The notes: a model not told the origin generated them from the letters alone. DNA of 64,000 nucleotides from Eubacterium sp. UBA3782 (GCA_002368795.1 DFFG01000003.1:1-64000); one strand, 5' to 3'. Shown: positions 9,182 through 58,014, counted from the stretch's first letter. Made by a program: numbers and translations.

Positions 9182-10696
9182 ATGGGAAATTACAGCACGA
9201 CCAAAACCGAAATTAAAAACTATATCTTTGCCAGGGTGCCCCTCATCATCATTCAGTCGGCCGAGCGGGCCAGAGTGGAGCGGATGATCGCTGAGACAGC
9301 CAGGGAGATGCGGATCGAGGTGACCTGCTACTCGGATACAAAGCAGATCTACCGCCCGGGCCAGGACACGATCCGGGATGTGGAGAGCGATCCGATCCCC
9401 TTTGCCATGGAGCTGCTTCGCCGCAAGAGGGGAACGACCTTTGTGCTGGCAGATGTGCGCAGGGTCAGTGAGGAGAACCTGTACAGTCGGGAGATCGTCA
9501 ATCTCCTGTATCTGGCCGCAGAGATGGGAGGCACAGTGATCCTGATCACGCCGGATCCTGTGTGGGCAAGGATCGCCCGGATGGGCATGCTGACCAGGCT
9601 CGATCTTCCCGATATGGATGAGCGGACCGCCGAGATCCGTGAATTCGTCCGGCGGTATGGTTCGCGGTATTCCATCGCCTGGGATGAGAACGATATCCAG
9701 CGCGCATCTGCGCTCCTGAGGGGATTTACAGAGATCCAGATCGACAACATCCTGTCTTCCGCGCTGGTGGAAAACGGCGCGCTGGACCGGCGGCATATCT
9801 ATGAGCTGACGAGCCAGAAAAGCCGGATGTACGAGGCAGCCGCAGGCGTCCAGGAGGTCAGGGTCAGCGGGGACCTGCGGATCTCAGGCCTGGACAACCT
9901 GAAGCAGTGGCTGGCAGAAAAGAAGAGGATCTTTTTTGCATCAGAGGAGGAGCTGGCCGCGCGCGGCCTGCAGACGCCAAAGGGGATCCTTCTGGCCGGC
10001 ATCCCGGGATGCGGAAAATCCTTCTCCGCCCGGATGGTTGCCAGAGAGTGGGAACTTCCGCTGTTCAAGTTCGATATCGGCAGCATCTACGACAAATGGG
10101 TCGGAGAGAGTGAGCACCGGATGGCGGATGCCCTGCAGTTTATCGACAATGTTGCGCCCTGCATCGTATGGATCGATGAGATCGAGAAGGCTCTTTCGGT
10201 CTCGGACAGCAGCAACGATACCGGGCAGCGGGTGCTGGGCCAGTTCCTGTTCTGGCTTCAGGAGTCATCAAGCCGCGTATTTCTCGTGGCAACGGCAAAT
10301 GACATCCGAAAGCTGCCGCCGGAGCTGTTTCGCAAGGGCAGGTTCTCGGAGATGTTCTTTGTCGATCTGCCGACAGCAGTCGAGCGGGCGGAGGCCATCA
10401 CCCAGTACATGGAACAGTGCCTGCACAGGACGCCCGACGCGGGCAGCCTGCAGGAGCTGGTTGGAAGAACAAAGGGATTTTCCTATGCGGATATTGAATA
10501 TATGGTAAAGGAGGCTGCCCAGAAGGCACTTCTTTACGGGGATGATGCGGTCAGCAGCGATATGCTTCTGGAACTGACAGAGAAGGTCATCCCGTTTGCA
10601 GATACCAATCCGGACGTGGTCTCCCAGCTGAGAAGCTGGGGAAATTCGCGGGCAGCCGCAGCGTCGCTTCCGGAGAAGGGAGGAAATGAGGCATGA
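9182..10696 (+). CDS. Classical-clade AAA+ ATPase. The N-terminal ~230 aa look like a degenerate ATPase-like domain. The C-terminal module has Walker A GIPGCGKS, Walker B IVWIDEIE and an SRH ([29 protein letters not shown]).
   Basis: Motifs read directly from the translation. The KWVGESE segment after Walker A resembles the Vps4/spastin/katanin-type KW(M/V)GE(S/G)E. The stop overlaps the next start (ATGA at 10693-10696). Confidence 0.75.
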
Positions 10697-26366: not shown

Positions 26367-26434
26367 AAAGAACCGGAGACAGGTCGGAATGCATGCTGCA
26401 CCAGGACCTGACAGTCTCCGGTTCTTTGTTTTGG
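26367..26434. terminator. Strong hairpin (GAACCGGAGACAGGTC ... GACCTGACAGTCTCCGGTTC) flanked by A7 upstream and TTTGTTTT downstream. Probably the murI terminator.
   Basis: 16-19 bp inverted repeat with a T-run on the plus strand and an A-run (a T-run on the minus strand) on the other side. Confidence 0.55.
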
Positions 26435-38194: not shown

Positions 38195-38365
38195 TAACTG
38201 ATCTTCAGGGCGGGGTGCAATTCCCCACTGGCGGTAAAGTCCGCGAACCGAAAGGCCGAACCGGTGAAACTCCGGTACCAACAGTACAGTCTGGATGAAA
38301 GAAGATACCAAATTTGTTTTTAAATTTTGCAATGCCCTGGATCTTTGATTCGGGGCATTTTTCTG
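38195..38365 (+). promoter_or_regulatory. FMN riboswitch (RFN element) with an intrinsic terminator expression platform
   Basis: CTTCAGGGCGGGGTGCAATTCCCCACTGGCGGTAAAGTCCGCGA...GGTGAAACTCCGGTACCAACAGTACAGTCTGGATGAAAGAAGAT matches the RFN consensus. Terminator ATGCCC..GGGGCAT TTTTT at about 38330-38362. Confidence 0.85.
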
Positions 38366-39009: not shown

Positions 39010-39042
39010 ACAAAGAAAAAGAAACAAAACAGAACGCACAGA

Positions 39043-39081
39043 GCTGCCGCACCCTATGCCAGGGGCGGCAGTTTCTTTTTG
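39043..39081 (+). terminator. ribU terminator (GCTGCCGCACCC tatgccag GGGGCGGCAG TTTCTTTTTG)
   Basis: GC-rich stem and a T-run. The stem shares the CTGCCGCAC motif with other terminators here. Confidence 0.6.
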
Positions 39082-42953: not shown

Positions 42954-44012
42954 ATGGCCGACTGGAGAGATAATGTAAGGCGCGTCGTGCCCTATGTGGC
43001 AGGAGAGCAGCCAAACTGGCCGGACATGGTCAAGCTGAATACAAATGAAAACCCCTACCCGCCTGCACCTGGGGCGGCAGAGGTGCTGAAAAACATGAAT
43101 ACGGAGCAGATGCGTCTGTATCCGGATCCCACAGCCGGTGATCTGGTGAAGGCCATCGCGGCGTACTACGGCGTCGATCCGGAGCAGGTCTTTGTGGGCG
43201 TCGGCTCAGATGATGTCATCGCCATGGCCTTTATGACCTTCTTCAATTCTGACAAGCCGATCCTGTTTCCGGACATCAGCTATTCCTTCTACGAGGTCTG
43301 GGCTGACTGCTTCCGGATCCCATACCGGCAGGTGCCGCTGGATGCAGATTTCAAGCTGCAGCCGGCAGACTATTCTGCAGAAAACGGAGGCATCATCTTC
43401 CCAAATCCCAATGCCCCCACCGGCATCGCCCTGGAGCCGGATGCCGTGGAATCAATCGTCCGCAGCAATCCCGGTTCGGTCGTCATCGTAGATGAGGCCT
43501 ATGTGGATTTTGGAACGGCATCCGCCCTTCCTCTTCTGGAGAAATATGACAATCTCCTGGTCGTACAGACCTTCTCGAAATCACGGTCCATGGCCGGCAT
43601 GCGGATCGGTTTTGCCATCGGCAGCCGTGAGCTGATCGCCTGTATGCAGGACGTCAAGTACTCCGTCAATTCCTACACAATGAACCGGCCGTCGATCCTG
43701 ATGGGAAAGGCCGTGATGGAGGATGAGGCATACTTCAGGGAGACCTGTAAAAAGATCATCCAGACCCGCGAGTGGGCAAAGGAAGAACTGGAAAAGCTTG
43801 GCTTTACGCTCACGGATTCCAAAACAAATTTCCTGTTCGCGTCCCACAGAAGCGTCCCTGCAAAGAAGCTCTTCCAGATGCTGAGAGAGAAGCACATCTT
43901 TGTCCGGTACTTCGACCGGCCGCGGATCGACAATTATCTGAGGATCACCATCGGCACAAAAGAAGAGATGGAGATCCTGCTGGCGGCCCTCCGCACATAT
44001 CTGAACAAATAA
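42954..44012 (+). CDS. hisC: Histidinol-phosphate aminotransferase
   Basis: LNTNENPYPP and FSKSRSMAGMRIGF (PLP Lys). GGAGG sits 9 nt before the ATG at 42954. Confidence 0.85.
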   Translation: MADWRDNVRRVVPYVAGEQPNWPDMVKLNTNENPYPPAPGAAEVLKNMNTEQMRLYPDPTAGDLVKAIAAYYGVDPEQVFVGVGSDDVIAMAFMTFFNSDKPILFPDISYSFYEVWADCFRIPYRQVPLDADFKLQPADYSAENGGIIFPNPNAPTGIALEPDAVESIVRSNPGSVVIVDEAYVDFGTASALPLLEKYDNLLVVQTFSKSRSMAGMRIGFAIGSRELIACMQDVKYSVNSYTMNRPSILMGKAVMEDEAYFRETCKKIIQTREWAKEELEKLGFTLTDSKTNFLFASHRSVPAKKLFQMLREKHIFVRYFDRPRIDNYLRITIGTKEEMEILLAALRTYLNK

Positions 44013-44017
44013 AAGCA

Positions 44018-44199
44018 GGGGCTGCCGCACCACGAAGAGAAAAGCGTGCATAAACATTCTGAAGGGAACATCCGCAGTGCCGGTACTTGGAGGAATCCTT
44101 TTTTAGGAGTCTGACGTAGTACCGCTGCACTTTGGACAGAGCGGGAGCGTTTCCCGAAAGAATATTTATGCACGTTATACTTCGCGGTGCGGCAGCCCC
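44018..44199. repeat. R2 element, copy 1 (reverse orientation). About 150-nt core with ~20-bp TIRs (AAAGCGTGCATAAAYATTCT), nested inside a 14-bp inverted repeat GGGGCTGCCGCACC/GGTGCGGCAGCCCC.
   Basis: Core shared with 46972-47147 and 57847-58014. The flanking stems differ per copy but are always complementary. Confidence 0.75.
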
Positions 44200-44267
44200 T
44201 GATTCATTTTCATGGATTGCGAGCTGTCGGATACGTTTTATGCTGCTGTGCAGCAGGTCTGCCGGAC

Positions 44268-44918
44268 CTAGTTGTGGTGGCCGATGCGGACGATGTGGCT
44301 GTGGCGCAGGCCGGTGATCCAGTCAACGTCATCGGTGAACCAGCTCATGATCTCCAGCATGCGCTTTTCCCATGCGATGGAGCTCTCCTTGTCCGCCTCT
44401 GTCGGCTCAGTCTCCATGGTCACGTCGATCTCGTCATAGCCAAAGATATATTCGCCGGCATTCCAGATGGAGAAGTTGCTGTCGGGACCAACAGTGATCT
44501 TGTCTCCGCGGGCCTCAACAAGAGCGTCGTGGCGGCGTTTGTATTCTTCCTGTGCACCGGGGATCAGCTTTGTGGCAAAGACACGATGGCGGATCAGCTC
44601 CTTGTTAGGACGGACGATGCCGAAATCCTGGTACATCAGGCGCATCTCTTCCATGGGAGAGGAGATCCATTCAAAGGTATCCCCCATGCGTTCCACCAGA
44701 TGGGTATATTCTTCCTTCTGGGCGGCGGAAGGACGCGGAGTAAAAATATCATCTTCATAATAGCCAAAGACCAGGTCGTCGATCTGCCACAGGCTGAAAT
44801 TGGAAAACTCCAGGTCGTCCATCAGATGAGTCAGATCGTTCCAGATCTTTCCGAGACCGGAACGGAAATCGTTGAATTTGCCGGGCTTGATCTTGAGCGC
44901 AAAGGCATGTCTTTCCAT
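44268..44918 (-). CDS. Tandem-domain L-rhamnose mutarotase-family protein (two about 100-aa RhaM-like repeats)
   Basis: The second repeat RHRVFATKLIPGAQEEYKRRHD resembles the E. coli YiiL N-terminus [22 protein letters not shown]. The first repeat is analogous. Confidence 0.55.
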   Translation of the reverse strand: MERHAFALKIKPGKFNDFRSGLGKIWNDLTHLMDDLEFSNFSLWQIDDLVFGYYEDDIFTPRPSAAQKEEYTHLVERMGDTFEWISSPMEEMRLMYQDFGIVRPNKELIRHRVFATKLIPGAQEEYKRRHDALVEARGDKITVGPDSNFSIWNAGEYIFGYDEIDVTMETEPTEADKESSIAWEKRMLEIMSWFTDDVDWITGLRHSHIVRIGHHN

Positions 44919-45190
44919 AGCGTTAATCCTTTCTTCCTCAGCAGATATGAAAAAGATCAGAGAGCTTTTCGAGTGCCGGCATCCGGCAGGAAGCCGCTGA
45001 TCATATGCCTATTATACTGCCCGCAGACCGGGGAAATCAAGGAGATATGGCCTCTTTCCACTGATGGCGGGAGATGATATACTAAGATGACGGCACAGAT
45101 GTTCCCACCTTCCGGGAAACGCAGAAATGGCTGTGTGCCGGCCGTATGACCGGCCGAAAAGAATGAAACAAACAGAAAGCAGAAATAAAA

Positions 45191-46081
45191 ATGGATAATG
45201 AACTGAAATTTGCGATCCTGATCGACGCAGATAATGTGACCGATAAATATATCAAGATTATATTGGAGGAGACCGCGAACTATGGCATCGCGACCTACAA
45301 GCGGATCTACGGCGACTGGACCAGCACCAGGATGAAGTCCTGGAAGCCGGTGCTTCTGGATAATTCGATCATACCGATCCAGCAGTACAGCTACACCACG
45401 GGAAAGAATGCGACGGATTCGGCGATGATCATCGATGCGATGGATATCCTGTATTCCAATACGGTGGACGGGTTCTGCATCGTATCTTCCGACAGCGATT
45501 TTACCCGCCTTGTCGCCCGTCTGAGGGAGGACGGCAAGCAGGTCATCGGCATGGGCGAGAGCAAGACGCCGCAGCCCTTTGTTTCGGCCTGCAACCAGTT
45601 TAAATACCTGGACATGCTCTACGAGCAGAGGCAGCAGGAGGCAGCCGAGGAGGCAGCGGCAGAGGAAGCGGCGGCAGCGGCAGCAGCGGCGGAGGAAGCA
45701 AAGACCACCACCCGCCGGACTTCAAAGAAGAAGACGGCCGCGTCAACGGCAAAGACAAAGGAACAGAAGGAAAAGGAGCAGAAGGAGAAGAAGGAGCTGG
45801 AAAAGAAGCGGCAGAAGGACCTGAACCGTGTCAGGAACACTCTGAATGCAACCATCGAAAAGTTCTCTGACGAGGATGGATGGATCTTCTCCGGAAAGCT
45901 GGGTGACCAGCTGGCCAAGCGTATGCCGGAATTTGATGTCCGGAACTTTGGCTTCAACAAATTCACCTCCTTTATCAAGTCTCTGGGAACCTATGAGTTT
46001 ACTTCCAGGAACGATTCCAACGGACAGAAACAGATCTACTTCCGCCTGAAGACAAAGGGTGACAAGGGCGAACAGAAATAA
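45191..46081 (+). CDS. NYN-domain (LabA-like) protein with a Lys/Glu/Ala low-complexity linker and a C-terminal OST-HTH/LOTUS-like domain
   Basis: AILIDADNV...CIVSSDSDF, characteristic of NYN nucleases. Confidence 0.65.
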   Translation: MDNELKFAILIDADNVTDKYIKIILEETANYGIATYKRIYGDWTSTRMKSWKPVLLDNSIIPIQQYSYTTGKNATDSAMIIDAMDILYSNTVDGFCIVSSDSDFTRLVARLREDGKQVIGMGESKTPQPFVSACNQFKYLDMLYEQRQQEAAEEAAAEEAAAAAAAAEEAKTTTRRTSKKKTAASTAKTKEQKEKEQKEKKELEKKRQKDLNRVRNTLNATIEKFSDEDGWIFSGKLGDQLAKRMPEFDVRNFGFNKFTSFIKSLGTYEFTSRNDSNGQKQIYFRLKTKGDKGEQK

Positions 46082-46094
46082 GGAAATACGAAAT

Positions 46095-46934
46095 ATGAAA
46101 TTTACCAAGATGCAGGGCTGCGGAAATGACTATGTCTATGTGAACTGTTTTGAGGAGACGGTGGAGGATCCGGCAGCTGCCGCGATCCGTGTGAGCGACC
46201 GCCACTTCGGCATTGGCTCAGACGGGCTGATCCTGCTCAAACCCTCAGATATCGCCGACTGCGAGATGGATATGTACAATCTGGACGGCTCCAGAGGCGC
46301 GATGTGCGGAAACGGGATCCGCTGTGTGGCCAAGCTGGCCTACGACAGCGGCTGCGTCAGAAAGGAGCGGATGTCCATCGCCACGATGAGCGGGATCAAG
46401 ATCATCGATCTGACCGTCGAAAATGGCCGGGCGGTGGCAGCCCGGGTAAATATGGGTGCGCCGATTCTCGAGCCGGAGAAGATCCCCGTGCTGACAGAAG
46501 GCCGGACAGCGATCAATGTGCCGATCACGGTAGATGACAAAGAATACCGTTTTACCGGTGTATCGATGGGCAATCCCCATGCCGTGATCTTTATGGACGG
46601 GATCCGCGCATTAAAGCTGGAGGAGTTCGGCCCGAAATTCGAATGCCACCCGCTGTTCCCGGACCGGGTCAATACAGAGTTCATTGAGGTCGTGGACAGA
46701 CACACCCTCAATATGCGGGTATGGGAAAGGGGCTCAGGAGAGACCCTTGCCTGCGGCACCGGCGCCTGCGCAGCTGCCGTTGCGGCCATACTGAACGGAA
46801 AAGTCGATGGAGACTGCCCGGTGAAGGTCCGCCTGCTCGGCGGCGAGCTGACGATCGAGTGGGACCGCAGCGAAAATACGGTCTACATGACCGGACCGGC
46901 AGTCACAGTCTTCACCGGAGAGATCGAACTGTAA
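46095..46934 (+). CDS. dapF: Diaminopimelate epimerase
   Basis: MKFTKMQGCGNDYV and GAMCGNGIRC catalytic-cysteine motifs. Confidence 0.85.
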   Translation: MKFTKMQGCGNDYVYVNCFEETVEDPAAAAIRVSDRHFGIGSDGLILLKPSDIADCEMDMYNLDGSRGAMCGNGIRCVAKLAYDSGCVRKERMSIATMSGIKIIDLTVENGRAVAARVNMGAPILEPEKIPVLTEGRTAINVPITVDDKEYRFTGVSMGNPHAVIFMDGIRALKLEEFGPKFECHPLFPDRVNTEFIEVVDRHTLNMRVWERGSGETLACGTGACAAAVAAILNGKVDGDCPVKVRLLGGELTIEWDRSENTVYMTGPAVTVFTGEIEL

Positions 46935-46971
46935 AGGCAGCCGCATATAAGGGCAGTATGCCCCAAAAAAA

Positions 46972-47147
46972 GGAGCTGCCGCACGGAAAATAAGATGGGC
47001 ATAAATATTCTTACGGGAAACGCTCTCGCTCTGTCCTCGTGCAGCGGTACTACGTCGGAATCCTAAAAAGGATTCCTCCAAGTACCGGCACTGCGGATGT
47101 TCCCTTCAGAATGTTTATGCCCTCTCTCGTTTCCGTGCGGCAGCCCC
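46972..47147. repeat. R2 element, copy 2 (forward orientation), inside the stem GGAGCTGCCGCACGG / CCGTGCGGCAGCCCC. The stem is flanked by A7 on one side and TTTT on the other, so it acts as a bidirectional terminator.
   Basis: Central hairpin GGAATCCtaaaaaGGATTCC. The TIRs are GGGCATAAATATTCT and AGAATGTTTATGCCC. Confidence 0.75.
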
Positions 47148-47150
47148 TTT

Positions 47151-48287
47151 TCAGTCGTAGTCATCCAGAAAACTGTGGCGCACACCGCCCTGTTTATAGC
47201 CCAGGACGGCGTCCAGATGAATGTTTTCCATGCTGCGGAAGATGTTGCCCTCCACGTTTTCATTTGTTTTCTTCAGCTGGGCGATCAGCTGCTTGGCTTC
47301 GATCCGCTTGGAACTGCTGTCTCCGGACGCCTCGTGGGCGATCGTCTCTGTGAAGTGGCAGGCACAGCGGATAAAATGCAGATCGTTTTCGTCCCGCCAG
47401 CGCTTGATGTCGTCCTCCCGGATGAGGTACATCGGGCGGATCAGCTCCATGCCCTCAAAATTCATGCTGTGGAGTTTGGGCATCATGGTCTGGGTCTGGC
47501 CGCTGTATAGGATGCTCATGAGGGTCGTCTCGATGACATCATCATAATGGTGCCCGAGGGCGATCTTGTTGCAGCCCAGTTCCTTTGCCTTGCTGTAGAG
47601 ATACCCCCTGCGCATGCGGGCACAGATGTAGCAGGGTGAGTGGGGGATCGTGTCGACCGCATCGAAGATGCGGGAGGAAAACATGGTCAGCGGGATGCCG
47701 AGCAGACGTGCGTTTTCCTGAATCATGCCAAGCGTCGCCGGGCTGTAGCCGGGGTCCATGCAGAGAAATACCGTCTCAAAGTTAAACTTGTTCCGGCGGC
47801 GGATCTCCTGGAAGAGTTTGGCCATCAGCATGGAGTCCTTGCCTCCGGAAATGCAGACGGCGACACGATCGCCGGGGGAGAGCAGTTCATAGTCGGAGAT
47901 CGCTTTTACAAAGCGGCTGGTGATCCGCTTGGAAAAACGTTTGCGAAGACTTTTTTCGATGAGCTCTCTGCGTTCCTCTACATCGGTGATCTGCTGAAGC
48001 TGTCCCACCAGCCACTGACCGTAGCCGCCGGACAGGTGCCAGACCGACAGATCGCCATCCTGGAGCTTTTCTGCAGTGCGCAGAGACATTCCGCCAAACA
48101 TGCAGAAAATGACAGGCTTTTTGCCGGCAGGAAGAGCAGCACGGTCGCTTTCCAGTTCTTCCCGGGTGATGTGGACCGCTCCCGGAAGACTGCCCTGGCG
48201 GAAGGATTCCTCATCCCGGATATCGATAAGTATATATTCCGAAGGATCCCAGCTTTGCAGCTCCTCCGGTGACACAGACTGGATCAT
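47151..48287 (-). CDS. Fusion of a rhodanese (sulfurtransferase) domain to a TtcA/TilS-like PP-loop tRNA thiolation enzyme (tRNA 2-thiocytidine synthetase-like)
   Basis: N-terminal rhodanese region. PP-loop SGGKDS and the TtcA-type C-terminal CxxC pairs. Start chosen at MIQSVSPEEL with RBS GAGGTG. Confidence 0.7.
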   Translation of the reverse strand: MIQSVSPEELQSWDPSEYILIDIRDEESFRQGSLPGAVHITREELESDRAALPAGKKPVIFCMFGGMSLRTAEKLQDGDLSVWHLSGGYGQWLVGQLQQITDVEERRELIEKSLRKRFSKRITSRFVKAISDYELLSPGDRVAVCISGGKDSMLMAKLFQEIRRRNKFNFETVFLCMDPGYSPATLGMIQENARLLGIPLTMFSSRIFDAVDTIPHSPCYICARMRRGYLYSKAKELGCNKIALGHHYDDVIETTLMSILYSGQTQTMMPKLHSMNFEGMELIRPMYLIREDDIKRWRDENDLHFIRCACHFTETIAHEASGDSSSKRIEAKQLIAQLKKTNENVEGNIFRSMENIHLDAVLGYKQGGVRHSFLDDYD

Positions 48288-48496
48288 AGAGAGACACCTC
48301 ACACCCGCATGCCCTGCGGGCTTTTTCATATGCATTAGAAATATGCTTATTATAGCGGCCGTGCCTGAGAATTGCAACCAGCCGGGAGGCCAATATACAA
48401 CCAGTGGGAATGCCTTGGCCAGATGTTTCCCAGGTATCGCCAATTATGGTATAATCAATTGAATTTATGTGTTTTGCCACACAGGAGGATTTTGAT

Positions 48497-48904
48497 ATGA
48501 GTAAGTATGTGGAACGGGCAAAGGAGCTTCGCGCGATCGTATCGCCCCATTATAACTGTGCCCAGTCTGTGGTCGTCCCCTTCGCGGCCGCTGCCGGTGT
48601 CCCGGAAGAGACGGCCCTGCGGTTTGCCGACGGCTTTGGCGGCGGAATGCGGCGGGCTTCCGTCTGCGGTGCGGTCACCGGAGGGATCATGGCGCTGGGG
48701 CTGTTTGGTCTGGGTGATCCGAAAACACTGGGGGCCTATCACAGGCGCCTGAAGGAACGTCACGATGGTATGCTGGACTGCGCGGATCTTCTGCGGGTCA
48801 ATGCAGCGGCAGGCAGGGAAAAGAAGCCCCATTGCGATGCTATGGTCTTTGAGTGTGTGGAGCTTGTGGAAGAGATCCTCAGAGAAAACGGAAAGCTGCA
48901 GTAA
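48497..48904 (+). CDS. C_GCAxxG_C_C-family putative redox protein
   Basis: Cysteine spacing YNCAQSV...CGAVTGG...C..C. RBS GGAGGA before the ATG. Confidence 0.5.
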   Translation: MSKYVERAKELRAIVSPHYNCAQSVVVPFAAAAGVPEETALRFADGFGGGMRRASVCGAVTGGIMALGLFGLGDPKTLGAYHRRLKERHDGMLDCADLLRVNAAAGREKKPHCDAMVFECVELVEEILRENGKLQ

Positions 48905-49122
48905 GGCTAAAACACTCTGGAGTATACGGACGCGAAATATACGGATCAAAAACTGCTTGAGTTTTTCACAGACAAATGATATACTCTCTATACTTTCAGG
49001 AAGAACAGACCGCTGTTCTGCGGTCTTCCTGAAAGCCGCGGCAGCATCTGCCGCATCTGCCGGGTTTCCCGGAATCTTTTATCCATTTTTTTATCTCACA
49101 TCAATCATCAGGAGCATGCGCA

Positions 49123-50865
49123 ATGTCAGCCAGGATCGGTCAGATCATCCATGGCCGCTACCGGGTGCTCAGCCAGATCGGAAAGGGCGGTATGTCTGCC
49201 GTTTATCTGGTGCAGGATCTCCGCTCCGGAGAGAAATTTGCCATGAAGGAAATCCTGCAAAATGACAGATATTACAGTCAAAATGCAGCCGCATTGCCGC
49301 AAAATGAAGGAAATTGCCTTGGCTTTGCTGAGGCAGAGCTTCTTTCCGGCCTGGATCATCCGGCTTTTCCCAAAATTCATGAGGTTATCCGGGACGCGGA
49401 AGGCACAGTATTCATCATTCGTGAATATGTGGAGGGAGAGTCGCTCGATCGCCTTCTGAGAAGGGGGCCCTTTTCTCCGGAAGCGGTCCGCCAGTGCGGG
49501 ATCGCCCTGGGCGAAGCCCTGAACTATCTGCACAGCCAGGATCCTCCGGTCATTTATCGGGACATGAAGCCTGCAAACATCATCCGCCGGCCGGATGGGC
49601 AGCTGGTTCTCATTGATCTGGGGATCTCCGGAAGCCGCAGCCTGAATAGGGACGCTGGTGGAAATGCAGGAACACGAGGGTATGCTGCACCCGAGCAGTA
49701 CAGTTCAGGAGGGGAAGACATTTCCTCCGACATTTATGCGCTTGGTATTTCCCTGTTTGAACTGCTTACCGGGATCCCTCCGCGGGAGGATCCGTGGGCA
49801 TACCGGTTTCATCCGATCCGCCGGATACGGCCCGATTGCCCGGAAGAGCTCGAGCGGGTGATCAACCAGTGCATACGCTTCGTACCAGAGGATCGTTATC
49901 CGGACTGCAGCTGTTTGCTTGAGGAACTGCGTGCTGTGCCGGCAATGACGTCAGAAACGACAGGCAGAACCAGGAGGCCCAGGCGATGGCAGAGATGGCC
50001 TTCGAGCATTCGTTTACAGGGGATCATAATTGTCCTGTTGGCGGTCCTTCTGGCTGCTGTTCCGGTTTCTGTTTTGACGGCAAAAGCTTTGGCTGGTGCA
50101 GAGTACCGCCAGCTGATTGCCGGGACAGAGAGCGGCAGCCTGGAGGAGCAGGAAGCGTGCTTTGCGAAAGGATTCCAGAGCGAAATGGCAGATGCTTCTC
50201 TCTATGAGCGATATCTGGACTGGTGTGAGAAAAACGAACGGTTTGGAAGCAGGCAGCTTGCCCTGCTGACCACAAGCTGGGAGAGGGATCAGGGAAAACT
50301 GGAGAGGGACAGCCGATGCGGATCGCTGGGCATGCAGGCCGGCCGGCTCTGCCTGTTTGCTGAAACGGAAGAATGGAGCATGCAGACCCGGGCGGCGGAA
50401 GCGGCAGCCTGGTTTGATCTGGCAGCAGCGAAGGGAGAGGCGGATGCCGGTCTGTACTGCCGCATCTGCAGCTTTTTCCAGAACTATGGAGCCGTTCGTA
50501 CACAGGGACAGAGCCAAGCCCCGGAGGACCTGTCAGCTATGCTGCAGGAGGCACAAGAATGGCTGACAGAAGCAGCCAGAACGCCAGAGCTGAATGATGA
50601 GCAGAAGCTGCTCCTTGCCGGGGAACTTGCCGATCTGGTGAACGTGCATCGGAAGGCGCTGGCAGAGGGAGGGATCTTCAAAGACCAGGTACTCCTCCTG
50701 TATGGGCAGATCAGGGATCTGTACAGCTCTTCTGACAGCGTTGAGGCCAGCAGGAAAGAAGAGTTGGAGATGCGGCTGGACAGGTACATGGACAACCTGG
50801 AAAGAGTCTATGAAAACATGGAAAAGCGAGTGGCAGCAGACAACGAAAGGAGAGTCGGAAAATGA
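49123..50865 (+). CDS. Membrane-spanning Ser/Thr protein kinase with an extracellular helical (non-PASTA) domain. Catalytic-loop YRDMKPAN and DLG are non-canonical.
   Basis: GKGGMSAVY glycine loop, AMKEI Lys, APE motif, and one TM at about residue 300. Confidence 0.75.
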   Translation: MSARIGQIIHGRYRVLSQIGKGGMSAVYLVQDLRSGEKFAMKEILQNDRYYSQNAAALPQNEGNCLGFAEAELLSGLDHPAFPKIHEVIRDAEGTVFIIREYVEGESLDRLLRRGPFSPEAVRQCGIALGEALNYLHSQDPPVIYRDMKPANIIRRPDGQLVLIDLGISGSRSLNRDAGGNAGTRGYAAPEQYSSGGEDISSDIYALGISLFELLTGIPPREDPWAYRFHPIRRIRPDCPEELERVINQCIRFVPEDRYPDCSCLLEELRAVPAMTSETTGRTRRPRRWQRWPSSIRLQGIIIVLLAVLLAAVPVSVLTAKALAGAEYRQLIAGTESGSLEEQEACFAKGFQSEMADASLYERYLDWCEKNERFGSRQLALLTTSWERDQGKLERDSRCGSLGMQAGRLCLFAETEEWSMQTRAAEAAAWFDLAAAKGEADAGLYCRICSFFQNYGAVRTQGQSQAPEDLSAMLQEAQEWLTEAARTPELNDEQKLLLAGELADLVNVHRKALAEGGIFKDQVLLLYGQIRDLYSSSDSVEASRKEELEMRLDRYMDNLERVYENMEKRVAADNERRVGK

Positions 50866-53297
50866 GAGAACAGGAACTGAACAAACGCATCTGCAGGACC
50901 AGACAGAGAATCAGGATCGTATCCGCAGGCATTCTGGCAGTACTTCTCTTGGGCCAGGCGCTGTACCGGCCGGTATATGCCGGGGAAGATGCCAGGAAAC
51001 AGAAAAGCAATGCGGCACAACAGGAGGCGGGATCGTCAACGGCAGAACTCCCGGATGATAAAAAAGAGACAGAAGAGCAGCTTCCGGTCCGCATCGTGCT
51101 CCGTCCGGTAAAAACAGAGGGAGAGGCAGATCCCGATCTTACCGGAGAGATCAAAAAGCAGGTGCAGGCTGCCATTGATGCCGGAACCAAGGATAAGGAT
51201 ATTCCGGAAAAGAATGCGGAGCCCGCACCTGCTGTTGGAGGAGAAAAAGCAGAGCAAGTTGAAACGTCAGAAAGGCTGCAGTCCAAAGAGGCTGAAATCT
51301 CCTGGCAGGAAACGAAAGAAACGCAAACGCCAGAGCCTGAAACTGAAGCGCCGGGATCAGAAGAGACGGATACGCCAGACGCAGAAGCGAAAGTGACAGA
51401 AACAGAAAAGACAGAAACACCGGAGACAGAAACAGAAGAGGCAGATACCACGGGGACCGGATCAGAAGGAACAAAAACAACGGATACGGAAGGGCTGGAA
51501 ACGGAAGGAACAGAAGAGACAGAAACCGAACCTGCAGAAGAGGAGATTTCTCTGCAGGAGTGGATCTGCAGCCTGATCAGCTGGAGCTATACATACGATG
51601 ACCAGGTAGAAGCGCCGGGATACAGCAGGCCGGCAGGCACCTCGCCCATCCTTCTTCAGTTCAAGGAAGATCTCCGCATCCGCTTTAATCCAGATGACGG
51701 GGAGGACAGCCAGAGCTTTCTGACCACCTTGCCTCGTGAAAATGGCGGAAATGATGAAGAAAACCAGCCGCAGGATGGTGAGAAACCATCGGGCGGAAAC
51801 AATGGCGGCAGTGATGGAAAAGAAGATGGCGGCCATGAGAATCCGGATAAGACCGGCGGACACGAAAGTGGGGAACAAAACGATAAAAATACGGAAGATA
51901 GTAACAAGAGTGGAGATAACAACACTGATAATGATGAGAATAATGACAGTAATGGAGACAAAACCCAAAATAATCAGGAAACTGGTCAGGGTTCAGGGAC
52001 ATTTTATGATCTAAGTGGAGGGGAATCCCAATCTGGTCCGGGAAGTATGAGTGGGGAAGATCCGTCCGGTGAGGGCGGCGAGGAAGGAGGAGCTCCGGAG
52101 ACTTCTGGCGAAACGGGGCCTGGACTGGATGAACAGCGTCTGCTGGAGGAAACCATCATCGATGGCGTCGAGGATGGACATTCCTATACCGGAGATGTAC
52201 AGCCGCAGGTCACGCTGTCAGAGGGAGGATATGCCAGTGCCGATGTCACATTGCGCCGCTCACGCATGGGTGAAGTGGAGGATGTGACGGGTAGTCTGGT
52301 ACTGACAGGAGAAAGCAGCGGACAAAAGGCGCAGGCCGAAGCACTAACCGCTGTTCCGGAAAATGACGGTCTGTACACTCTGGAGGTTACCTATCGGGAC
52401 GATTCCGGCAACGAGGTAAAAAAAGAAGTTTCTTTTACAGTCAACCGCTTTGGTTCCGTCTATGCGTACAACGATGCACTCCAGAACATCAAAGATGCCT
52501 GGGTCCGAAGCGTGACCGAGCCCCTGATTATATCGGAATACAATCCGGATCCGCTTCTGGAGGACTCACTGGAGATAGAGATCACCCGTGATGGCGTTCC
52601 GCTGAAAAATGTCCGGTATTCTGCAGAACAGGCAGAACGCTCTTCGGAGGGCAGGACCGGCGGATGGTATCGGTATGATTACACGATCGATCCGGCAAAT
52701 TTCCGTAAGGACGGTACCTACCGGATCTCCGTTTCTTCAAAGGATGCCGCAGGAAACCGTCCAGACTCCATCAGCAGCGAAAGCGGAGAGATCCTCTTTC
52801 GGGTGGATTCTGCCGCCCCGACGATCCGGAGCATTTCCGGCCTGGAGATGCCCTTTGTGCGGGCAGAAAGCCAGAAGGTGCGTTTTATCGTCCGCGACAA
52901 TATGGGCCTGGCCTCCGTGACGGTCTGGCTGGATGATGCGATCCTGCTTCAGGTGACGAGCTTTGAAGATCCAGGCAGCTATCATGGCGAATTTACGATC
53001 GATGAAGGAACGGAACATCATGTACGGATCATCGCATGTGATCTGGCTGGAAATATACTGGATACAGACCGCAGGGACAGAGACGGCAGGTACCTGTTTG
53101 CTCCCATATCACCCTTTGTGCGGGAGATTACGGTATCGGATAATCTTCTGGCGTTCTTCATCCAGACAGGCCAGGGGCGGCTGATCTTTGCCGCAGCCGG
53201 GATAATCATGTCTTTGGCGGCTTTGCTGATCTTCCTGGGGATCCGGGCATGGAGAACGGGCAGATACCGGGAGGAACCAACAAGATGGCTGCGCTAA
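50862..53297 (+). CDS. Cell-surface protein of 811 aa. It has an N-terminal signal-anchor, a Thr/Glu-rich acidic repeat region, an Asn/Asp/Gly-rich low-complexity region, beta-rich Ig-like domains and a C-terminal TM.
   Basis: Start overlaps the kinase stop (ATGA). RBS GGAGAG. Hydrophobic segments sit at both ends. Confidence 0.6.
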   Translation: MREQELNKRICRTRQRIRIVSAGILAVLLLGQALYRPVYAGEDARKQKSNAAQQEAGSSTAELPDDKKETEEQLPVRIVLRPVKTEGEADPDLTGEIKKQVQAAIDAGTKDKDIPEKNAEPAPAVGGEKAEQVETSERLQSKEAEISWQETKETQTPEPETEAPGSEETDTPDAEAKVTETEKTETPETETEEADTTGTGSEGTKTTDTEGLETEGTEETETEPAEEEISLQEWICSLISWSYTYDDQVEAPGYSRPAGTSPILLQFKEDLRIRFNPDDGEDSQSFLTTLPRENGGNDEENQPQDGEKPSGGNNGGSDGKEDGGHENPDKTGGHESGEQNDKNTEDSNKSGDNNTDNDENNDSNGDKTQNNQETGQGSGTFYDLSGGESQSGPGSMSGEDPSGEGGEEGGAPETSGETGPGLDEQRLLEETIIDGVEDGHSYTGDVQPQVTLSEGGYASADVTLRRSRMGEVEDVTGSLVLTGESSGQKAQAEALTAVPENDGLYTLEVTYRDDSGNEVKKEVSFTVNRFGSVYAYNDALQNIKDAWVRSVTEPLIISEYNPDPLLEDSLEIEITRDGVPLKNVRYSAEQAERSSEGRTGGWYRYDYTIDPANFRKDGTYRISVSSKDAAGNRPDSISSESGEILFRVDSAAPTIRSISGLEMPFVRAESQKVRFIVRDNMGLASVTVWLDDAILLQVTSFEDPGSYHGEFTIDEGTEHHVRIIACDLAGNILDTDRRDRDGRYLFAPISPFVREITVSDNLLAFFIQTGQGRLIFAAAGIIMSLAALLIFLGIRAWRTGRYREEPTRWLR

Positions 53298-53405
53298 GGC
53301 AGCACCGGCAATACTTCTTGAGCAAAAACTCTTTCAACAGGTTTTACTGGGATAAGAAATCCATGGAAAAAGGAAGAAAAGCCGGAAGAATCCTCTTGGG
53401 TGTGG

Positions 53406-53434
53406 TTGACAAAGAAAGGGAATACCGGTATACT
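53406..53434 (+). promoter_or_regulatory. Sigma-70 promoter for trxB (TTGACA, 17 nt, TATACT)
   Basis: Consensus hexamers about 48 nt upstream of the start. Confidence 0.45.
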
Positions 53435-53481
53435 TTGTATAGATTGTACAAAATCAAATTTTCCACAACCAGGAGGTCGCG

Positions 53482-54396
53482 ATGGCTGGAGTACAGAGTG
53501 TTGATATTTTGATCATTGGCGGCGGAACAGCAGGTTTGACCGCGGCTATTTATGCAGTTCGTGCTGGAAAGAGCGCGCTGATCCTTGAAGCAAAGGCTTA
53601 TGGCGGCCAGATCGTCAATACGCCGGATATCGAGAATTATCCCGGCATGGCGCATGTGTCCGGTTTTGATTTTGCCACCGGCCTCTATGAGCAGGCGATC
53701 GGTCTTGGTGCAAAGCTGAAATACGAGAAGGCCCTGTCCATCGAGGATAACGGCAAAACAAAGCTGGTAAAAACCAGAAGACATACCTATGAGTGCAAGG
53801 CAGTTATCCTGGCAACAGGGGCCAAGAACCGTACCCTTGGTCTGGACCGGGAAGAGCAGTTCACCGGAAGCGGAGTTTCCTACTGCGCAACATGTGACGG
53901 TTCCTTCTTCAAGGGAAAGACAGTCGCGGTAAACGGCGGCGGAAACACGGCCATCGAGGATGCGCTCTATCTGTCAGATATCTGCGAGAAGGTTTATGTG
54001 ATCCACAGAAGAGATGAATTCCGCGGAGATGCTGCCGATGTGGAGAAGATGCGCGCCAGAGACAACATCGAATTCATTCTGAATGCAAACGTTACAGCCT
54101 TGATTGGCGACCAGAAGGTGGAAGCTATCGAGGTTACGGACAAGAATACCGGCGAGAAGAGAGAAGTAAAGGTCGACGGTCTGTTTATCGCGGTCGGTCA
54201 GGTTCCTGATAATATCGCCTTTGAAAATGTGGTCGAGCTTTCCTCCGGTTATATCGCAGCCGGCGAAGACTGCAAAACCGCTACACCGGGCATATTCACC
54301 GCCGGTGACTGCCGGACGAAGAATGTCCGTCAGCTCACGACAGCCGCTGCAGATGGCGCTGTGGCAGCCCTTGCCGCTTGCGCATACATCAAATAA
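53482..54396 (+). CDS. trxB: Thioredoxin-disulfide reductase
   Basis: FAD motif ILIIGGGTAGLTAA and redox centre CATCDG. Confidence 0.9.
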   Translation: MAGVQSVDILIIGGGTAGLTAAIYAVRAGKSALILEAKAYGGQIVNTPDIENYPGMAHVSGFDFATGLYEQAIGLGAKLKYEKALSIEDNGKTKLVKTRRHTYECKAVILATGAKNRTLGLDREEQFTGSGVSYCATCDGSFFKGKTVAVNGGGNTAIEDALYLSDICEKVYVIHRRDEFRGDAADVEKMRARDNIEFILNANVTALIGDQKVEAIEVTDKNTGEKREVKVDGLFIAVGQVPDNIAFENVVELSSGYIAAGEDCKTATPGIFTAGDCRTKNVRQLTTAAADGAVAALAACAYIK

Positions 54397-54428
54397 GAGC
54401 TGAAAAAAATCAAACACAAAGAAAAAGA

Positions 54429-54506
54429 CTGCCGCACCAGGCAAGACCATGCAGGATCGTAAAAAGGGATCCACGCAAAAGCTGTCTGGTGCGGCAGCCT
54501 TTTTTG
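54429..54506 (+). terminator. trxB terminator. Stem CTGCCGCACCAG/CTGGTGCGGCAG plus CCTTTTTT, with an unusually long 44-nt loop holding an internal GGATC..GATCC hairpin.
   Basis: 12-bp perfect stem followed by a T6 run. Confidence 0.55.
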
Positions 54507-54548
54507 TGAGCGATAAAACAAAAATTGTTGGCAGCCTTGAAAGCACAA

Positions 54549-54623
54549 GCCCCGGAAGACATTTAAGCAAACAATCTGCAGGCCTGATAAGGCCGAAGCC
54601 GTTTGCGTAATGCCTTACGGGGC
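54549..54623. repeat. R1 element, copy 3 (outer stem GCCCCGGAAG/CTTACGGGGC)
   Basis: Core ACATTTAAGCAAACAATCTGCAGGCC..GGCCGAAGCCGTTTGCGTAATGCC. Confidence 0.7.
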
Positions 54624-54629
54624 ATATTG

Positions 54630-55313
54630 TTATGCTTCTTCCGAGGCGGCAGAGACGAGGATGATCTCCCCATCGGCCACTCGGAACCGGATCTCCAGCC
54701 CGGCGTACCGCATGCCATATATGCGTTTGGGGTCATCCTGATAGGATGGCCGGGGGTCCTGGGTCAGAATCTCCAGAAGGGCAGCTCGCTTTTCTTCCGG
54801 TACCGTCAGCATACATTCCTTCTTATCCACCACCTGGAGCGGCTTTTTTCTGGAGCGGGCGGTGAAGCCTGCCAGAGCCTCCGGATGGCTGTCTGCGTAA
54901 GGAATATAAGGTTTGATATCGTAGATCGGTGTTCCATCCATGAGATCAGCACCGACGACAGTCAGAACGGGTCCTTCGGGACGAAGCTCGACAGAGCGCA
55001 GGCGGACACAGGAAAGTCCGAGATGGTTTGGCCGGAAGGGAGAGCGGGTGGCAAATACGCCTACCCGCTCATTTCCTCCAAGCACCGGCGGCCGGACCGT
55101 TGGGTGCCAGGCCTTGTCTGCATTCGCCGAGAACTGCCAGATCAGCCAGATGTGGGAAAATTCTTCCAGGCCTCTGACGGCTTCGGCGGATGCATATGCC
55201 GGCTCAAACCGGATCTCCGAGACCGTTTCCGCCAGTCCGCTCTGCCGGGGGATCCCGAACTTGTCGGGAAAATCTGAGTGGATATAGGCGATCGGCTGCA
55301 GTTCCATGGTCAT
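54630..55313 (-). CDS. tsaA: tRNA (adenine37-N6)-methyltransferase, TsaA/YaeB family
   Basis: IAYIHSDFPDKFGIPRQ...VFATRSPFRPN signature. Confidence 0.8.
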   Translation of the reverse strand: MTMELQPIAYIHSDFPDKFGIPRQSGLAETVSEIRFEPAYASAEAVRGLEEFSHIWLIWQFSANADKAWHPTVRPPVLGGNERVGVFATRSPFRPNHLGLSCVRLRSVELRPEGPVLTVVGADLMDGTPIYDIKPYIPYADSHPEALAGFTARSRKKPLQVVDKKECMLTVPEEKRAALLEILTQDPRPSYQDDPKRIYGMRYAGLEIRFRVADGEIILVSAASEEA

Positions 55314-57676
55314 CCTTTCTGTTCTGTTCCGGCAGGAGCTGCCGCAAACAGGTTGGTATTCATCGCCGGAAGCTCGATTCCCAGTGCATGGCGGATCACA
55401 TCATTGACGGTATCCACCGGGACGATCTCCAGCGTCTTTTTCACTTCATCCGGCACATCGGTCAGATCTCTCTGGTTCTCTCTGGGGATCAGCACCTTCT
55501 TTACGCCGGCCCGCTGAGCAGCCATCAGTTTTTCCGGAAGGCCGCCGATGGGCAGTACGTTTCCTCTCAGCGAGATCTCACCGGTCATGGCGAGGTCAGG
55601 TGCCACGCTCTTTCCGGTCACCAGGGAGACCAGGGCTGTAAACATGGTCACACCAGCGGAGGGCCCGTCCTTGGGAACAGCGCCGGAGGGGACGTGGATG
55701 TGGATATCCTTGTCCTTGAAATCCAGCTTGTCCGAGATAAACAGGGATCTTACCAGACTGGATGCAATCTCTGCTGATTCCTTCATAACATCGCCCAGCT
55801 GGCCGGTCAGCAGCACATGGCCGCTGCCGTGCATGGCAGTGGATTCGATAAACAGGATCTCACCGCCGGCCTGGGTCCAGGCGAGACCTGTGACGACCCC
55901 TGGCGGGTTGCTCTTCTGGATGCGGTCATGGATGATACCCTTGTTTCCGAGCATCTCCGGGACTTCCTTGCCGGTGACTGTGACCGGGTGATGGCCGTTT
56001 TCAACAAAATCTGCTGCCACATGCCGGCACAGGCGGTCGAGCTGCTTTTTCAGTCCGCGGACGCCAGCCTCCATGGTGTACTCGCTGACGATCCTCCGGA
56101 TCGCTCCGTCGGTCACCTTCAGTTCACCCTTCTGCAGGCCGGTATCCCGCATGGCTGCAGGGAGCAGATGCTTCCTGGCGATGTGGACCTTGTCGACTGG
56201 TGTGTAGCCGGAGAGCTGGATCACCTCCATACGGTCAAGCAGCGGCTGCGGAATCGTATCGGTCGTGTTTGCCGTGCAGATAAACAGGACGTTGGACAGA
56301 TCGTAGGGGATGTTCATGTAATGATCCGTAAAGGTATTGTTCTGTTCCGGATCCAGGACCTCCAGCAGGGCGCTGGAAGGATCGCCGGAAAAGCCGCCGG
56401 CCATCAGCTTGTCCACCTCATCCAGGACGACGACCGGGTTCATGGAGCCGGAGCGTTTGATTCCGTCCATGATGCGGCCGGGCATGGCGCCCACATAGGT
56501 CCGGCGGTGACCGCGGATCTCAGCCTCGTCACGTACACCGCCCAGGCTGATCCGCACATATTTGCGGTCCAGTGCGTCCGCGATGCTGTGTCCCATACTG
56601 GTCTTGCCCGTGCCGGGCGCACCGACAAACAGCAGGATCGAGCCGGCCTGCTCGTTTTTCAGCGTCATAACGGCGATATGCTCCAGGATACGTTCCTTGA
56701 CTTTGTCCAGGCCATAGTGATCCCGGTTCAGGATACGGCGTGCCTTCTTCAGGTCAGCCGGCTTTGTGTCATCGATCCGCCATTTCAGCGCAGTCACGAA
56801 ATCCAGATAATTCTCCATCGTGCTCCGCTCAGGGTCATTTGGCTGGGCGTCAAGATAGCGTTTCAGGACCCGGTCGACCTCTTTGCGGGCTTCCTCGGGC
56901 ATGCCGCTGGCTTCAATCTTGGACTGGTAGTCGTCTTCCTCCTGTTTTCCCTCCGGATCCATCGCATCCAGCTCATCCTGCAGCAGGCCGATCTGCTTGC
57001 GGATCGCGGCCTTCTTATAGCTGTTTCCTTCGGTCTCGTTGTACCGGGTGTTGAGGTCCTCCTGCATGCGGATCGTTCCCTGGAAGCGCATGAGAGCATC
57101 CTTGATCATCAGGCCCCTCTCGCGGAGCGAGTCAGTTTCAAGCAGCTGATATTTTTCCTCCAGCGTCATATCGATGAAGGGGCAGAACATAGCGCCAAAC
57201 TCGTTGATGGAGCTGCAGCGCTGGATATAGGTCAGCGCAAGCTCGGCACCCTGGAAATGCTTGGTCAGTTCGGTGATGGTCTTTTTCAGGCTGTCCAGAA
57301 GCTCTTTCTCACCCTTCTCGGTAATGTCGGAGACTTCATCTCTGGTATAGAACCTGCCCTCAAGGATCGAGTCAAAGAGGGAGACATCTGCAATCTGGAC
57401 CTTTTCTCTGGTCTGGCAGTGTACCCTTGTGCCTGCGTGTGTTTTCTGAATGCTGACGATATCCGCCAGGACGCCGGCGCCGAAAAAGCTGTCGACATTC
57501 ACTTCCCCCCTGGTGACTGGTGCCTTCAGCGGAAGCAGCACGGCCTTGTTGCCGTCTATTTTGAGCCGGCTCAGCTCTTCGGATTCAAAGGGCTCTGTGC
57601 CAAGCTGGTAATCCACATCCGGAAGGATCACTGTGTCATATACCGGGATGATCATATACGTTTTTAAATTATCCAT
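55310..57676 (-). CDS. lon: ATP-dependent Lon protease (endopeptidase La)
   Basis: Walker A GAPGTGKTS and catalytic DGPSAG. Start chosen at MDNLKTYMIIPVYD with GGGAGG. The stop overlaps the tsaA start (ATGA). Confidence 0.85.
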   Translation of the reverse strand: MDNLKTYMIIPVYDTVILPDVDYQLGTEPFESEELSRLKIDGNKAVLLPLKAPVTRGEVNVDSFFGAGVLADIVSIQKTHAGTRVHCQTREKVQIADVSLFDSILEGRFYTRDEVSDITEKGEKELLDSLKKTITELTKHFQGAELALTYIQRCSSINEFGAMFCPFIDMTLEEKYQLLETDSLRERGLMIKDALMRFQGTIRMQEDLNTRYNETEGNSYKKAAIRKQIGLLQDELDAMDPEGKQEEDDYQSKIEASGMPEEARKEVDRVLKRYLDAQPNDPERSTMENYLDFVTALKWRIDDTKPADLKKARRILNRDHYGLDKVKERILEHIAVMTLKNEQAGSILLFVGAPGTGKTSMGHSIADALDRKYVRISLGGVRDEAEIRGHRRTYVGAMPGRIMDGIKRSGSMNPVVVLDEVDKLMAGGFSGDPSSALLEVLDPEQNNTFTDHYMNIPYDLSNVLFICTANTTDTIPQPLLDRMEVIQLSGYTPVDKVHIARKHLLPAAMRDTGLQKGELKVTDGAIRRIVSEYTMEAGVRGLKKQLDRLCRHVAADFVENGHHPVTVTGKEVPEMLGNKGIIHDRIQKSNPPGVVTGLAWTQAGGEILFIESTAMHGSGHVLLTGQLGDVMKESAEIASSLVRSLFISDKLDFKDKDIHIHVPSGAVPKDGPSAGVTMFTALVSLVTGKSVAPDLAMTGEISLRGNVLPIGGLPEKLMAAQRAGVKKVLIPRENQRDLTDVPDEVKKTLEIVPVDTVNDVIRHALGIELPAMNTNLFAAAPAGTEQKG

Positions 57677-57846
57677 AATACCTCCCGAACAGGGACCAGA
57701 TCCGTGATCCCTGTAAAAAACAATGGTTGTCAGATCAAGCTTATCAGCACTCACAAAATCCGAGTGCTAATTAGCTTGTACACAAAGTATATGAGCATTT
57801 CCCACAAATGTCAAGAGGGGCAGAGATTAATTCGGGCAAAGAAAAA

Positions 57847-58014
57847 GGGGCTGTCGCATTAAACAAAGCGTGCATAAATATTCTTGCGGGAAGCGCTCGC
57901 GCTCTGTCCGCACGCAGCGGTACTAAGTCGGAATGTTCCATTCCTCCAAGTACCGGCTGAGGGCTGTTCCCTCCAGAATGTTTATGCACGCTTTTTTCTT
58001 AATGCGACAACCCC
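57847..58014. repeat. R2 element, copy 3 (forward orientation), inside the stem GGGGCTGTCGCATTAA/TTAATGCGACAACCCC, between the lon start and the upstream gene end
   Basis: Central hairpin GGAATgttccATTCC, compensatory relative to copy 2. TIRs AAAGCGTGCATAAATATTCT and AGAATGTTTATGCACGCTTT. Confidence 0.75.

Follow-up and report, generated by a model that had tools for sequence, protein, structure and literature searches.

The 64,000-nucleotide stretch of Eubacterium sp. UBA3782 analysed here (GCA_002368795.1 DFFG01000003.1:1-64000; the window) carries three copies, c1, c2 and c3, of a repeat that we label R2. Comparison of these copies with others from metagenome contigs demonstrates that the R2 hairpin has been kept through compensatory change, and its near-identical copies at unrelated sites point to recent spread. 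We consider it rather probable that R2 is a mobile or recently amplified palindromic repeat, similar in kind to SPRITE, REPIN and ERIC elements, which supplies bidirectional intrinsic terminators. A preliminary description had presented R2 as a non-coding, hairpin-forming dispersed repeat with terminal inverted repeats (TIRs), located at gene ends and resembling transposable elements of the miniature inverted-repeat type (MITEs), and this characterization stands; its proposal that the repeat is nested within the loops of resident terminators is not supported, as almost all of the approximately 40 copies have homologous outer stems (majority-base frequency of 0.83, versus 0.42 in the flanks).

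Architecture and covariation of the R2 hairpin

The three copies occupy the positions first reported for them, at 44018-44199 (c1, minus strand), 46972-47147 (c2, plus strand) and 57847-58014 (c3, plus strand), and their inverted-repeat arms and compensatory changes are confirmed far above chance. The inverted arms read GTGCATAAATATTCTT / AGAATGTTTATGCAC, and the central hairpin is present in the two forms originally noticed, GGAATCC..GGATTCC and GGAATG..CATTCC. The core 18-mer ATTCCTCCAAGTACCGGC has three exact occurrences in the window against an expectation of 0.08, and the arm motif GCATAAATATTCTT has six with up to two mismatches against an expectation of 0.22; in each case none of 100 shuffled sequences contained as many. 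A search with a profile built from many copies found no fourth copy in the window, and a two-mismatch core match at 55072, which falls within the trmO coding sequence, was dismissed as a chance match. As previously reported, the repeat has no conserved open reading frame (ORF); the variable length of its apical region breaks any reading frame.

To collect further copies, metagenome contigs were scanned with a degenerate arm motif. This yielded approximately 40 genuine copies, of which 24 are complete, with identities of 69-100%. Nearly all derive from the rumen-type metagenome assembly OCTX01, with additions from ODAI01, and the G+C content matches that of the window; none of these loci overlaps the three window sites. 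Alignment of 25 complete copies (alignment A2) defines R2 as a unit of about 165-185 bp that comprises the whole hairpin, basal stem included. On the left side, an A-rich flank is followed by the basal stem, a variable spacer of approximately 10 nt and the invariant block GTGCATAAAYATTCTTnCGGGAA; then come a conserved insert without counterpart on the right arm (CGCTCnCGCTCTGTCC), the inner helix (GCAGCGGTACT / AGTACCGGC) and a variable apical hairpin. The right side is a mirror-image arm that closes the GC-rich basal stem of 12-13 bp (GGGGCTGYCGCA / TGCGRCAGCCCC) and leads into a T-rich flank. Because the conserved insert sits on the left arm alone, the orientation of each copy can be defined.

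These elements can be placed precisely in c2, where the 5′ arm of the basal stem (GGAGCTGCCGCA, 46972-46983, plus strand) pairs with the 3′ arm (TGCGGCAGCCCC, 47136-47147, plus strand), which is directly followed by TTTT; the equivalent arms are at 44018-44029 and 44188-44199 in c1, and at 57847-57858 and 58003-58014 in c3. The invariant left subterminal block of c2 (GGGCATAAATATTCTTACGGGAA, 46997-47019, plus strand) corresponds to 57870-57892 in c3 and to the reverse complement of 44151-44173 in c1, while its right counterpart (TTCCCTTCAGAATGTTTATGCCC, 47100-47122, plus strand) corresponds to 57967-57989 in c3 and, as the reverse complement, to 44046-44068 in c1. The left-arm insert of c2 (CGCTCTCGCTCTGTCC, 47021-47036, plus strand) has equivalents at 57894-57909 in c3 and 44134-44149 in c1. 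The inner helix and apical hairpin of c2 (47041-47089, plus strand) mark the region that displays the clearest compensatory changes and that accommodates variable or nested inserts.

Conservation is distributed unevenly over the unit. The majority-base frequency is 0.99-1.00 in the GGGAA/TTCCC segments, 0.87-0.89 in the TIRs and 0.83 in the basal stem; it falls to 0.63-0.68 in the spacers, 0.45 in the apical loop and 0.42 in the flanks. The self-complementary part of the conserved block GTGCATAAATATTCTTnCGGGAA, as read from alignment A2, is limited to the 6-mer AATATT. The invariance of GGGAA/TTCCC and of most TIR positions across copies suggests that the subterminal blocks are subject to sequence-specific recognition in addition to the constraint imposed by folding.

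Each window copy folds, on either strand, as one long imperfect hairpin with a predicted free energy of -94 to -108 kcal/mol (z = -9.9 to -14.9), and none of 200 shuffled sequences was equally stable. Across the 48 consensus pairs of the alignment, 94.2% of cells hold standard pairs, and 27 pairs have changed on both sides, compared with 12.4 ± 1.9 in shuffles (0 of 500 as high) and 6-11 in slid controls. Among the changes, GGTACT/AGTACC alternates with GGTTCT/AGAACC and GGCACT/AGTGCC, and in the basal stem C-G exchanges with U-A at the CTG(C/T)CGC position. In two copies (L054 and L084; L-numbers denote collected loci) the apical hairpin has been wholly swapped for unrelated hairpins. The outer stems of the three window copies are complementary and slightly different between loci, as had been noticed; the stems were read as terminators enclosing the element, but 10 of 11 basal-stem pairs covary within one homologous helix, which argues that the stems are not independent.

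Gene ends and terminator character

All three window copies had been placed between convergent genes. This holds for c1, between hisC (plus strand, stop at 44012) and a rhaM-like gene (minus strand, stop at 44268), and for c2, between dapF (plus strand, stop at 46934) and a PP-loop/rhodanese gene (minus strand, stop at 47151), but not for c3, which lies in tandem context between two minus-strand genes, a CitMHS-type transporter (stop at 58027) and lon. The c3 unit is 13 nt downstream of the transporter gene and approximately 30 nt before a near-consensus lon promoter, giving the order gene end, hairpin with a minus-strand transcript ending in UUUUU, and lon promoter. Over the family, 22 of 26 distinct sites have the end of a long ORF no more than about 38 nt from R2. 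Convergent genes surround R2 at eight sites; the others are tandem, and the orientation of R2 relative to the incoming gene is sense at around seven and antisense at around five.

The A- and T-runs first reported beside R2 are a property of the family, with the A-rich tract on the left and the T-rich tract on the right; transcription from either side would therefore yield a GC-rich stem followed by a run of U. Within 8 nt the mean number of U residues is 4.8 on exit sides and 4.25 on entry sides, with a background of around 2. As the tracts are rich regardless of the exit side, they are part of the element or of the target that it prefers and are not locally tuned. R2 thus has the form of a bidirectional terminator, with a GC-rich stem of 12-13 bp and a U-tract directly after it on both strands, just past stop codons, and its copies may act as bidirectional intrinsic terminators or 3′-end hairpins. 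No promoter-like site was found within or upstream of the copies, and we rejected a reading of R2 as an internal promoter on this ground.

Dispersal, outer stem and alternative explanations

Flanking proteins assign the host to the uncultured Lachnospiraceae, the best named relatives being Blautia, Bilifractor and Eubacterium metagenome-assembled genomes at around 70-77% identity. A scaffold from a sheep-rumen metagenome is identical to the window, and c1 and c2 are kept at the same places in four further strains of approximately 99% identity. Searches for the core 18-mer in one-genome-per-species representatives returned seven matches of 18-20 nt in unrelated phyla, all attributable to chance; the R2 core was absent from viral contigs, and no R2 was found in plasmid and phage collections or in approximately 45 kb of sequence from related species. 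The question of a known RNA family, raised by the preliminary description, was settled in the negative by scanning the whole window against Rfam at the gathering threshold and positions 43950-47250 by E-value; the best sub-threshold matches on R2 are to miRNA hairpin models of plants and animals, and we regard them as chance.

It was also asked whether R2 is present in all relatives, and it is not. A sister species (HisC 78% identical) keeps the order TrkA-TrkH-hisC facing rhaM-NYN without R2; between hisC and rhaM lies a hairpin terminator unrelated to R2, its stem 10 bp and its loop approximately 40 nt long, in DNA too diverged for an exact empty site to be reconstructed. In the sister species, with 85% DapF identity (L012:1624-1661), c2 is absent and dapF is followed after 36 nt by a C_GCAxxG gene. 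The PP-loop/rhodanese gene beside c2 (46934-48490 in the window) is missing from that species, and so c2 sits at an indel boundary. Where CitMHS identity is 77%, in a further relative, the region is rearranged and the gene is followed by a plain terminator of 23 bp; the gene order around c3 (Pyr_redox, trmO-lon, CitMHS) is rearranged with respect to this relative.

The young subfamily to which c3 belongs is informative for both the spread of R2 and the extent of the unit. Blocks at least 97.6% identical to c3, with the stem and adjacent spacer included, are found at a minimum of eight different sites with unrelated flanks, and the similarity stops exactly at GGGG at the start and CCCC at the end. 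Several short contigs of the host species, moreover, terminate within one of the three copies, which is the behavior expected of an assembly-breaking repeat. Judged from these sequence patterns, R2 appears to have spread recently to many sites without target-site duplication. The region-wise conservation given above likewise indicates that the outer stem is part of R2 and not a set of unrelated resident terminators. Consistent with this, distances between basal stems correlate with distances between cores (Mantel r = 0.38; about 2% of permutations as high), and stem and spacer variants such as GGGGCTGTCGCATTAAACAAAGC or GGGGCTGTCGCACTAAGCATTTG accompany particular core subfamilies.

Several observations weigh against recent mobility or against the whole hairpin as the copied unit. 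No base-exact empty site was recovered in relatives at the c1, c2 or c3 sites, there is no presence/absence polymorphism of R2 among five strains of approximately 99% identity, and the flanks of the near-identical c3-subfamily copies contain no direct repeats that would represent a target-site duplication. Transposase domains are absent from the window and from the surroundings of atypical R2 copies; the search for a cognate IS200/IS605 or REP-associated transposase that had been proposed was equally negative in the window and the scattered host loci examined. The density of single-nucleotide polymorphisms within the species is 1-1.5% inside R2 copies, not below that of the surrounding DNA, and individual copies are thus not visibly under strong constraint. 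Short hairpins that share the R2 basal stem without its core exist, and some of the metagenome contigs are probably chimeric at R2 copies, which weakens the analysis of paired flanks. One such case is a perfect palindrome of 2 x 93 nt in contig OCTX012255995.1 (end of L076 and start of L085, junction 8867/8868), which consists of two R2 right halves with different outer flanks and was rejected as a probable assembly chimera.

The core-less hairpins bear on the model of the preliminary description, in which a TIR-to-TIR core of approximately 120-150 nt enters the loops of GGGGCTGCCGCA terminator hairpins that were already present, much as a REP-like palindromic unit is hit by an IS1397-type or HUH-type insertion. 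Terminators with an GCTGCCGC(AC) basal stem and no R2 core are found at 39044-39071 and 54429-54497 in the window and at L052:6608-6637, L076:3352-3445 and L076:7915-8004; within R2, variability is highest in the spacers that separate stem and TIR; and the R2 apical loop itself takes nested inserts (L053, L054 and L084). Against this model, stem and spacer variants are co-inherited with core subfamilies, and the identical block of the c3 subfamily takes in both stem and spacer at eight or more different sites. The model also led to the expectation of the same terminator without the insert at empty sites, which was not seen in the sister species: where orthologous or nearby sites in relatives have a terminator at all, it is unrelated, and in no case was this stem found closed by a short loop. 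We therefore regard nested insertion as unlikely for R2, while the existence of core-less terminators with the GCTGCCGC stem leaves room for a modular or nested history of a wider superfamily.

Two further explanations dispense with a mobile DNA unit. R2 might be a multicopy structured RNA with its own strand-specific function, regulatory or protein-binding, and only secondarily a DNA repeat or terminator; the strong covariation speaks for this. The conserved unpaired segment of the left arm gives the strands an asymmetry, with profile scores of 160-190 bits forward and 40-60 in reverse, and the aligned strand has more G·U than A·C cells (55 to 27), G·U also having the higher frequency per column. 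The G·U excess is just as evident, however, at sites whose incoming gene runs antisense to the aligned strand (9 to 1), and so it follows descent or an intrinsic strand and not locally transcribed RNA. Neither the comparison of G·U with A·C nor the richness of the A- and T-tracts separates constraint at the RNA level from constraint at the DNA level. The observed pattern is compatible with selection that acts while a folded single strand is being copied, a proposal made for REPINs (PMC3116915), or with a loose requirement for a terminator hairpin. The random orientation of copies to the incoming transcription, the lack of a promoter-like site and the unreduced polymorphism disfavor a trans-acting structured RNA; near-identical copies at many sites and contig breaks form the pattern of a proliferating repeat, and there is no matching Rfam family. 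We judge a structured RNA to be quite unlikely. Alternatively, R2 could be an old, immobile terminator family homogenized by gene conversion or recombination, with arm-to-arm correction mimicking compensatory change. This would accommodate the lack of target-site duplication, transposase and strain polymorphism, and the combinations of TIR, inner-helix and apical variants do look mosaic. Gene conversion requires pre-existing homologous copies, though, and leaves new sites unexplained; the syntenic site of the sister species holds an unrelated hairpin, the sequence available from relatives is without the family, and the sharp, identical GGGG/CCCC boundaries fit the copying of a defined unit. 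Gene conversion as the source of the pattern thus seems very unlikely.

For R2 as a mobile or recently amplified palindromic repeat, a mechanism can be outlined. The whole hairpin would be the copied unit, with the invariant blocks serving as the recognition site of a trans-acting enzyme encoded elsewhere, which would most plausibly act on folded single-stranded DNA as in REPIN/RAYT or IS200/IS605 elements; each copy that arrives after a stop codon would then provide a ready-made bidirectional intrinsic terminator. A more specific version is speculative, and we hold it to be doubtful: that R2 is a REPIN-like system in Clostridia, in which a folded single-stranded DNA hairpin is moved by a candidate host-encoded, probably single-copy enzyme that reads GCATAAAYATTCTnnnGGGAA, seeding terminators of which the GCTGCCGC-stem hairpins would be decayed or collapsed descendants.

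The core-less hairpins themselves are diverse. Gene-end hairpins that share the GCTGCCGC(AC) stem and are flanked by A- and T-tracts differ in their interiors and span 30, 69, 90 and 94 nt. A possibly related hairpin terminator of approximately 70 nt at 54427-54499, between the convergent Pyr_redox and trmO genes, has the same basal stem (CTGCCGCACC) with another interior and does not match the R2 profile, while the simple terminator at 39040-39071, whose stem reads GCTGCCGCACC…GGCGGCAG, is a possible relative or convergent form of the R2 basal stem. As a group, these terminators could be decayed relatives, members of a wider modular superfamily or convergent forms. At L055:10660-10730, a complete copy at 10714-10890 has a lone additional right end of R2 type (TGTGCGCTTAGTGCGGCAGCC, then TTCTTTT) immediately outside it; this is either the remnant of an older copy or a sign of R2 landing beside or within earlier copies.

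A second, unrelated small repeat with the core CTCACTCGGGGTGTCCCCCGCCTCTATAGGCGGCAAGAACGCC is a MITE of the classical type, which duplicates its target and is polymorphic between strains. In L087:7320-7410 it forms an insertion of approximately 83 nt with the 8-bp direct repeat GGAATGCC, present in one strain of 99% identity and missing from the window, where the empty site is at 48405-48415. Other copies are at 2130-2190 in the window and at L030:62-92, L019:4298-4325, L045 (several), L074:8268-8292 and L053:8985-9109. The L053 copy sits inside the apical loop of R2 at that locus; its presence accounts for the long interior of that locus, which we had considered as an autonomous R2 element and rejected. 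No R2 ends more than 200 bp apart, as a parent element would have, were found in the window or beside atypical copies.

Among the other features of the window, the sole gathering-level Rfam match is an FMN riboswitch (RF00050, 109.9 bits) at 38197-38310 on the plus strand, whose transcription unit appears to end at the 39044-39071 terminator. Co-directional long ORFs of 588, 533, 160 and 565 aa surround an AAA+ ATPase gene (9182-10696) at 5034-12390 on the plus strand and have no Pfam match at E <= 1e-5. A gene-end hairpin at 26367-26427 (AAAGAACCGGAGAC, a 33-nt loop and GTCTCCGGTTCTTT, with A- and T-tracts) is unrelated to R2 in sequence, and no further copy of it is present in the window and collected loci.

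Comparison with known repeat families

R2 is a previously undescribed family of terminator-like dispersed palindromic repeats, of a kind that is already known; by sequence it appears to belong to none of the SPRITE, REPIN and ERIC families. We found no description of an R2-like family in Lachnospiraceae in the literature, which is not proof of its absence. The family adds a covariation-rich case, from the poorly studied uncultured Lachnospiraceae of the rumen, to the few terminator-like dispersed repeats, and it is a candidate case of a spreading repeat that supplies terminators. In practical terms, metagenome assemblies break at R2, and chimeric contigs can result; annotation of these genomes should mask or model the repeat and should not mistake it for a structured RNA gene. 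Its invariant subterminal blocks offer a way to look for the enzyme by which hairpin elements without target duplication are moved in Firmicutes.

Classical MITEs derived from insertion sequences (IS), such as RUP and Correia elements, share with R2 a small size, TIRs, the lack of coding capacity and a multicopy, intergenic distribution; they form stable RNA hairpins when co-transcribed, and R2 is likewise hairpin-forming. They differ in having a target-site duplication and the TIRs of a parent IS, whereas R2 has no duplication and no parent element was seen. The contrast extends to the CTCACTCGGGGTGTCCCCCGCCTCTATAGGCGGCAAGAACGCC MITE of the same genome, with its 8-bp duplication and strain polymorphism, neither of which was seen for R2 in the flanks and the five strains compared. 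Elements of the Tn3-derived TIME group have a 38-bp inverted repeat of the form GGGG...TAAG and a 5-bp target duplication; we rejected this assignment, as R2 has only the GGGG start in common with them and lacks the 5-bp duplication. Integron attC sites were also rejected, since R2 has no RYYYAAC/GTTRRRY core sites and its copies are scattered among housekeeping genes in both orientations.

ERIC/IRU and related enterobacterial elements are imperfect palindromes of approximately 127 bp in transcribed intergenic regions at the 3′ ends of genes (Delihas, 2011, PMC3184786, citing Wilson and Sharp, 2006), and for repeats of this type the RNA hairpin affects mRNA fate and internal insertions occur at fixed points (PMC3184786). 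R2 resembles them in its location at gene 3′ ends or in 3′ untranslated regions and in its internal insertion points. ERIC-type elements, which are restricted to Enterobacteriaceae, have TA flanks and duplicate their targets; both signatures are missing from R2, which is built as a terminator with A- and T-tracts.

The closest functional analog is the SPRITE repeat of S. pneumoniae, which has a terminator-like fold with AAAA/TTTT ends, lies near the 3′ ends of coding sequences and is enriched between convergent genes; no target-site duplication has been established for it and no cognate IS is known (PMC3049150). SPRITE and R2 are both repeats of Firmicutes with a stem followed by a U-rich tract, AAAA/TTTT ends and a position near the 3′ ends of coding sequences, with enrichment between convergent genes; for neither could a target-site duplication be established, nor is a cognate IS known. 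SPRITE is AT-rich (28% GC) and approximately 105 bp long with an 18-bp duplex, while R2 is approximately 170 bp long with arms paired over nearly their full length, and has invariant subterminal blocks and a GC-rich basal stem. Homology between the two is very unlikely, judged by composition and host.

In architecture, R2 is closest to the REPINs, doublets of REP sequences that form hairpins and are mobilized by RAYT transposases (Bertels and Rainey, 2011, PMC3116915). Both have two conserved inverted blocks around a less conserved middle, form a long hairpin with common compensatory changes, lack a target-site duplication, and persist as extragenic populations within a lineage. R2 is around twice as long, and its conserved blocks are not mini-palindromes of the REP type. 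REPIN/RAYT systems have been described mainly in Proteobacteria, and no RAYT or Y1 gene was found in the 64 kb of the window and the scattered host loci.

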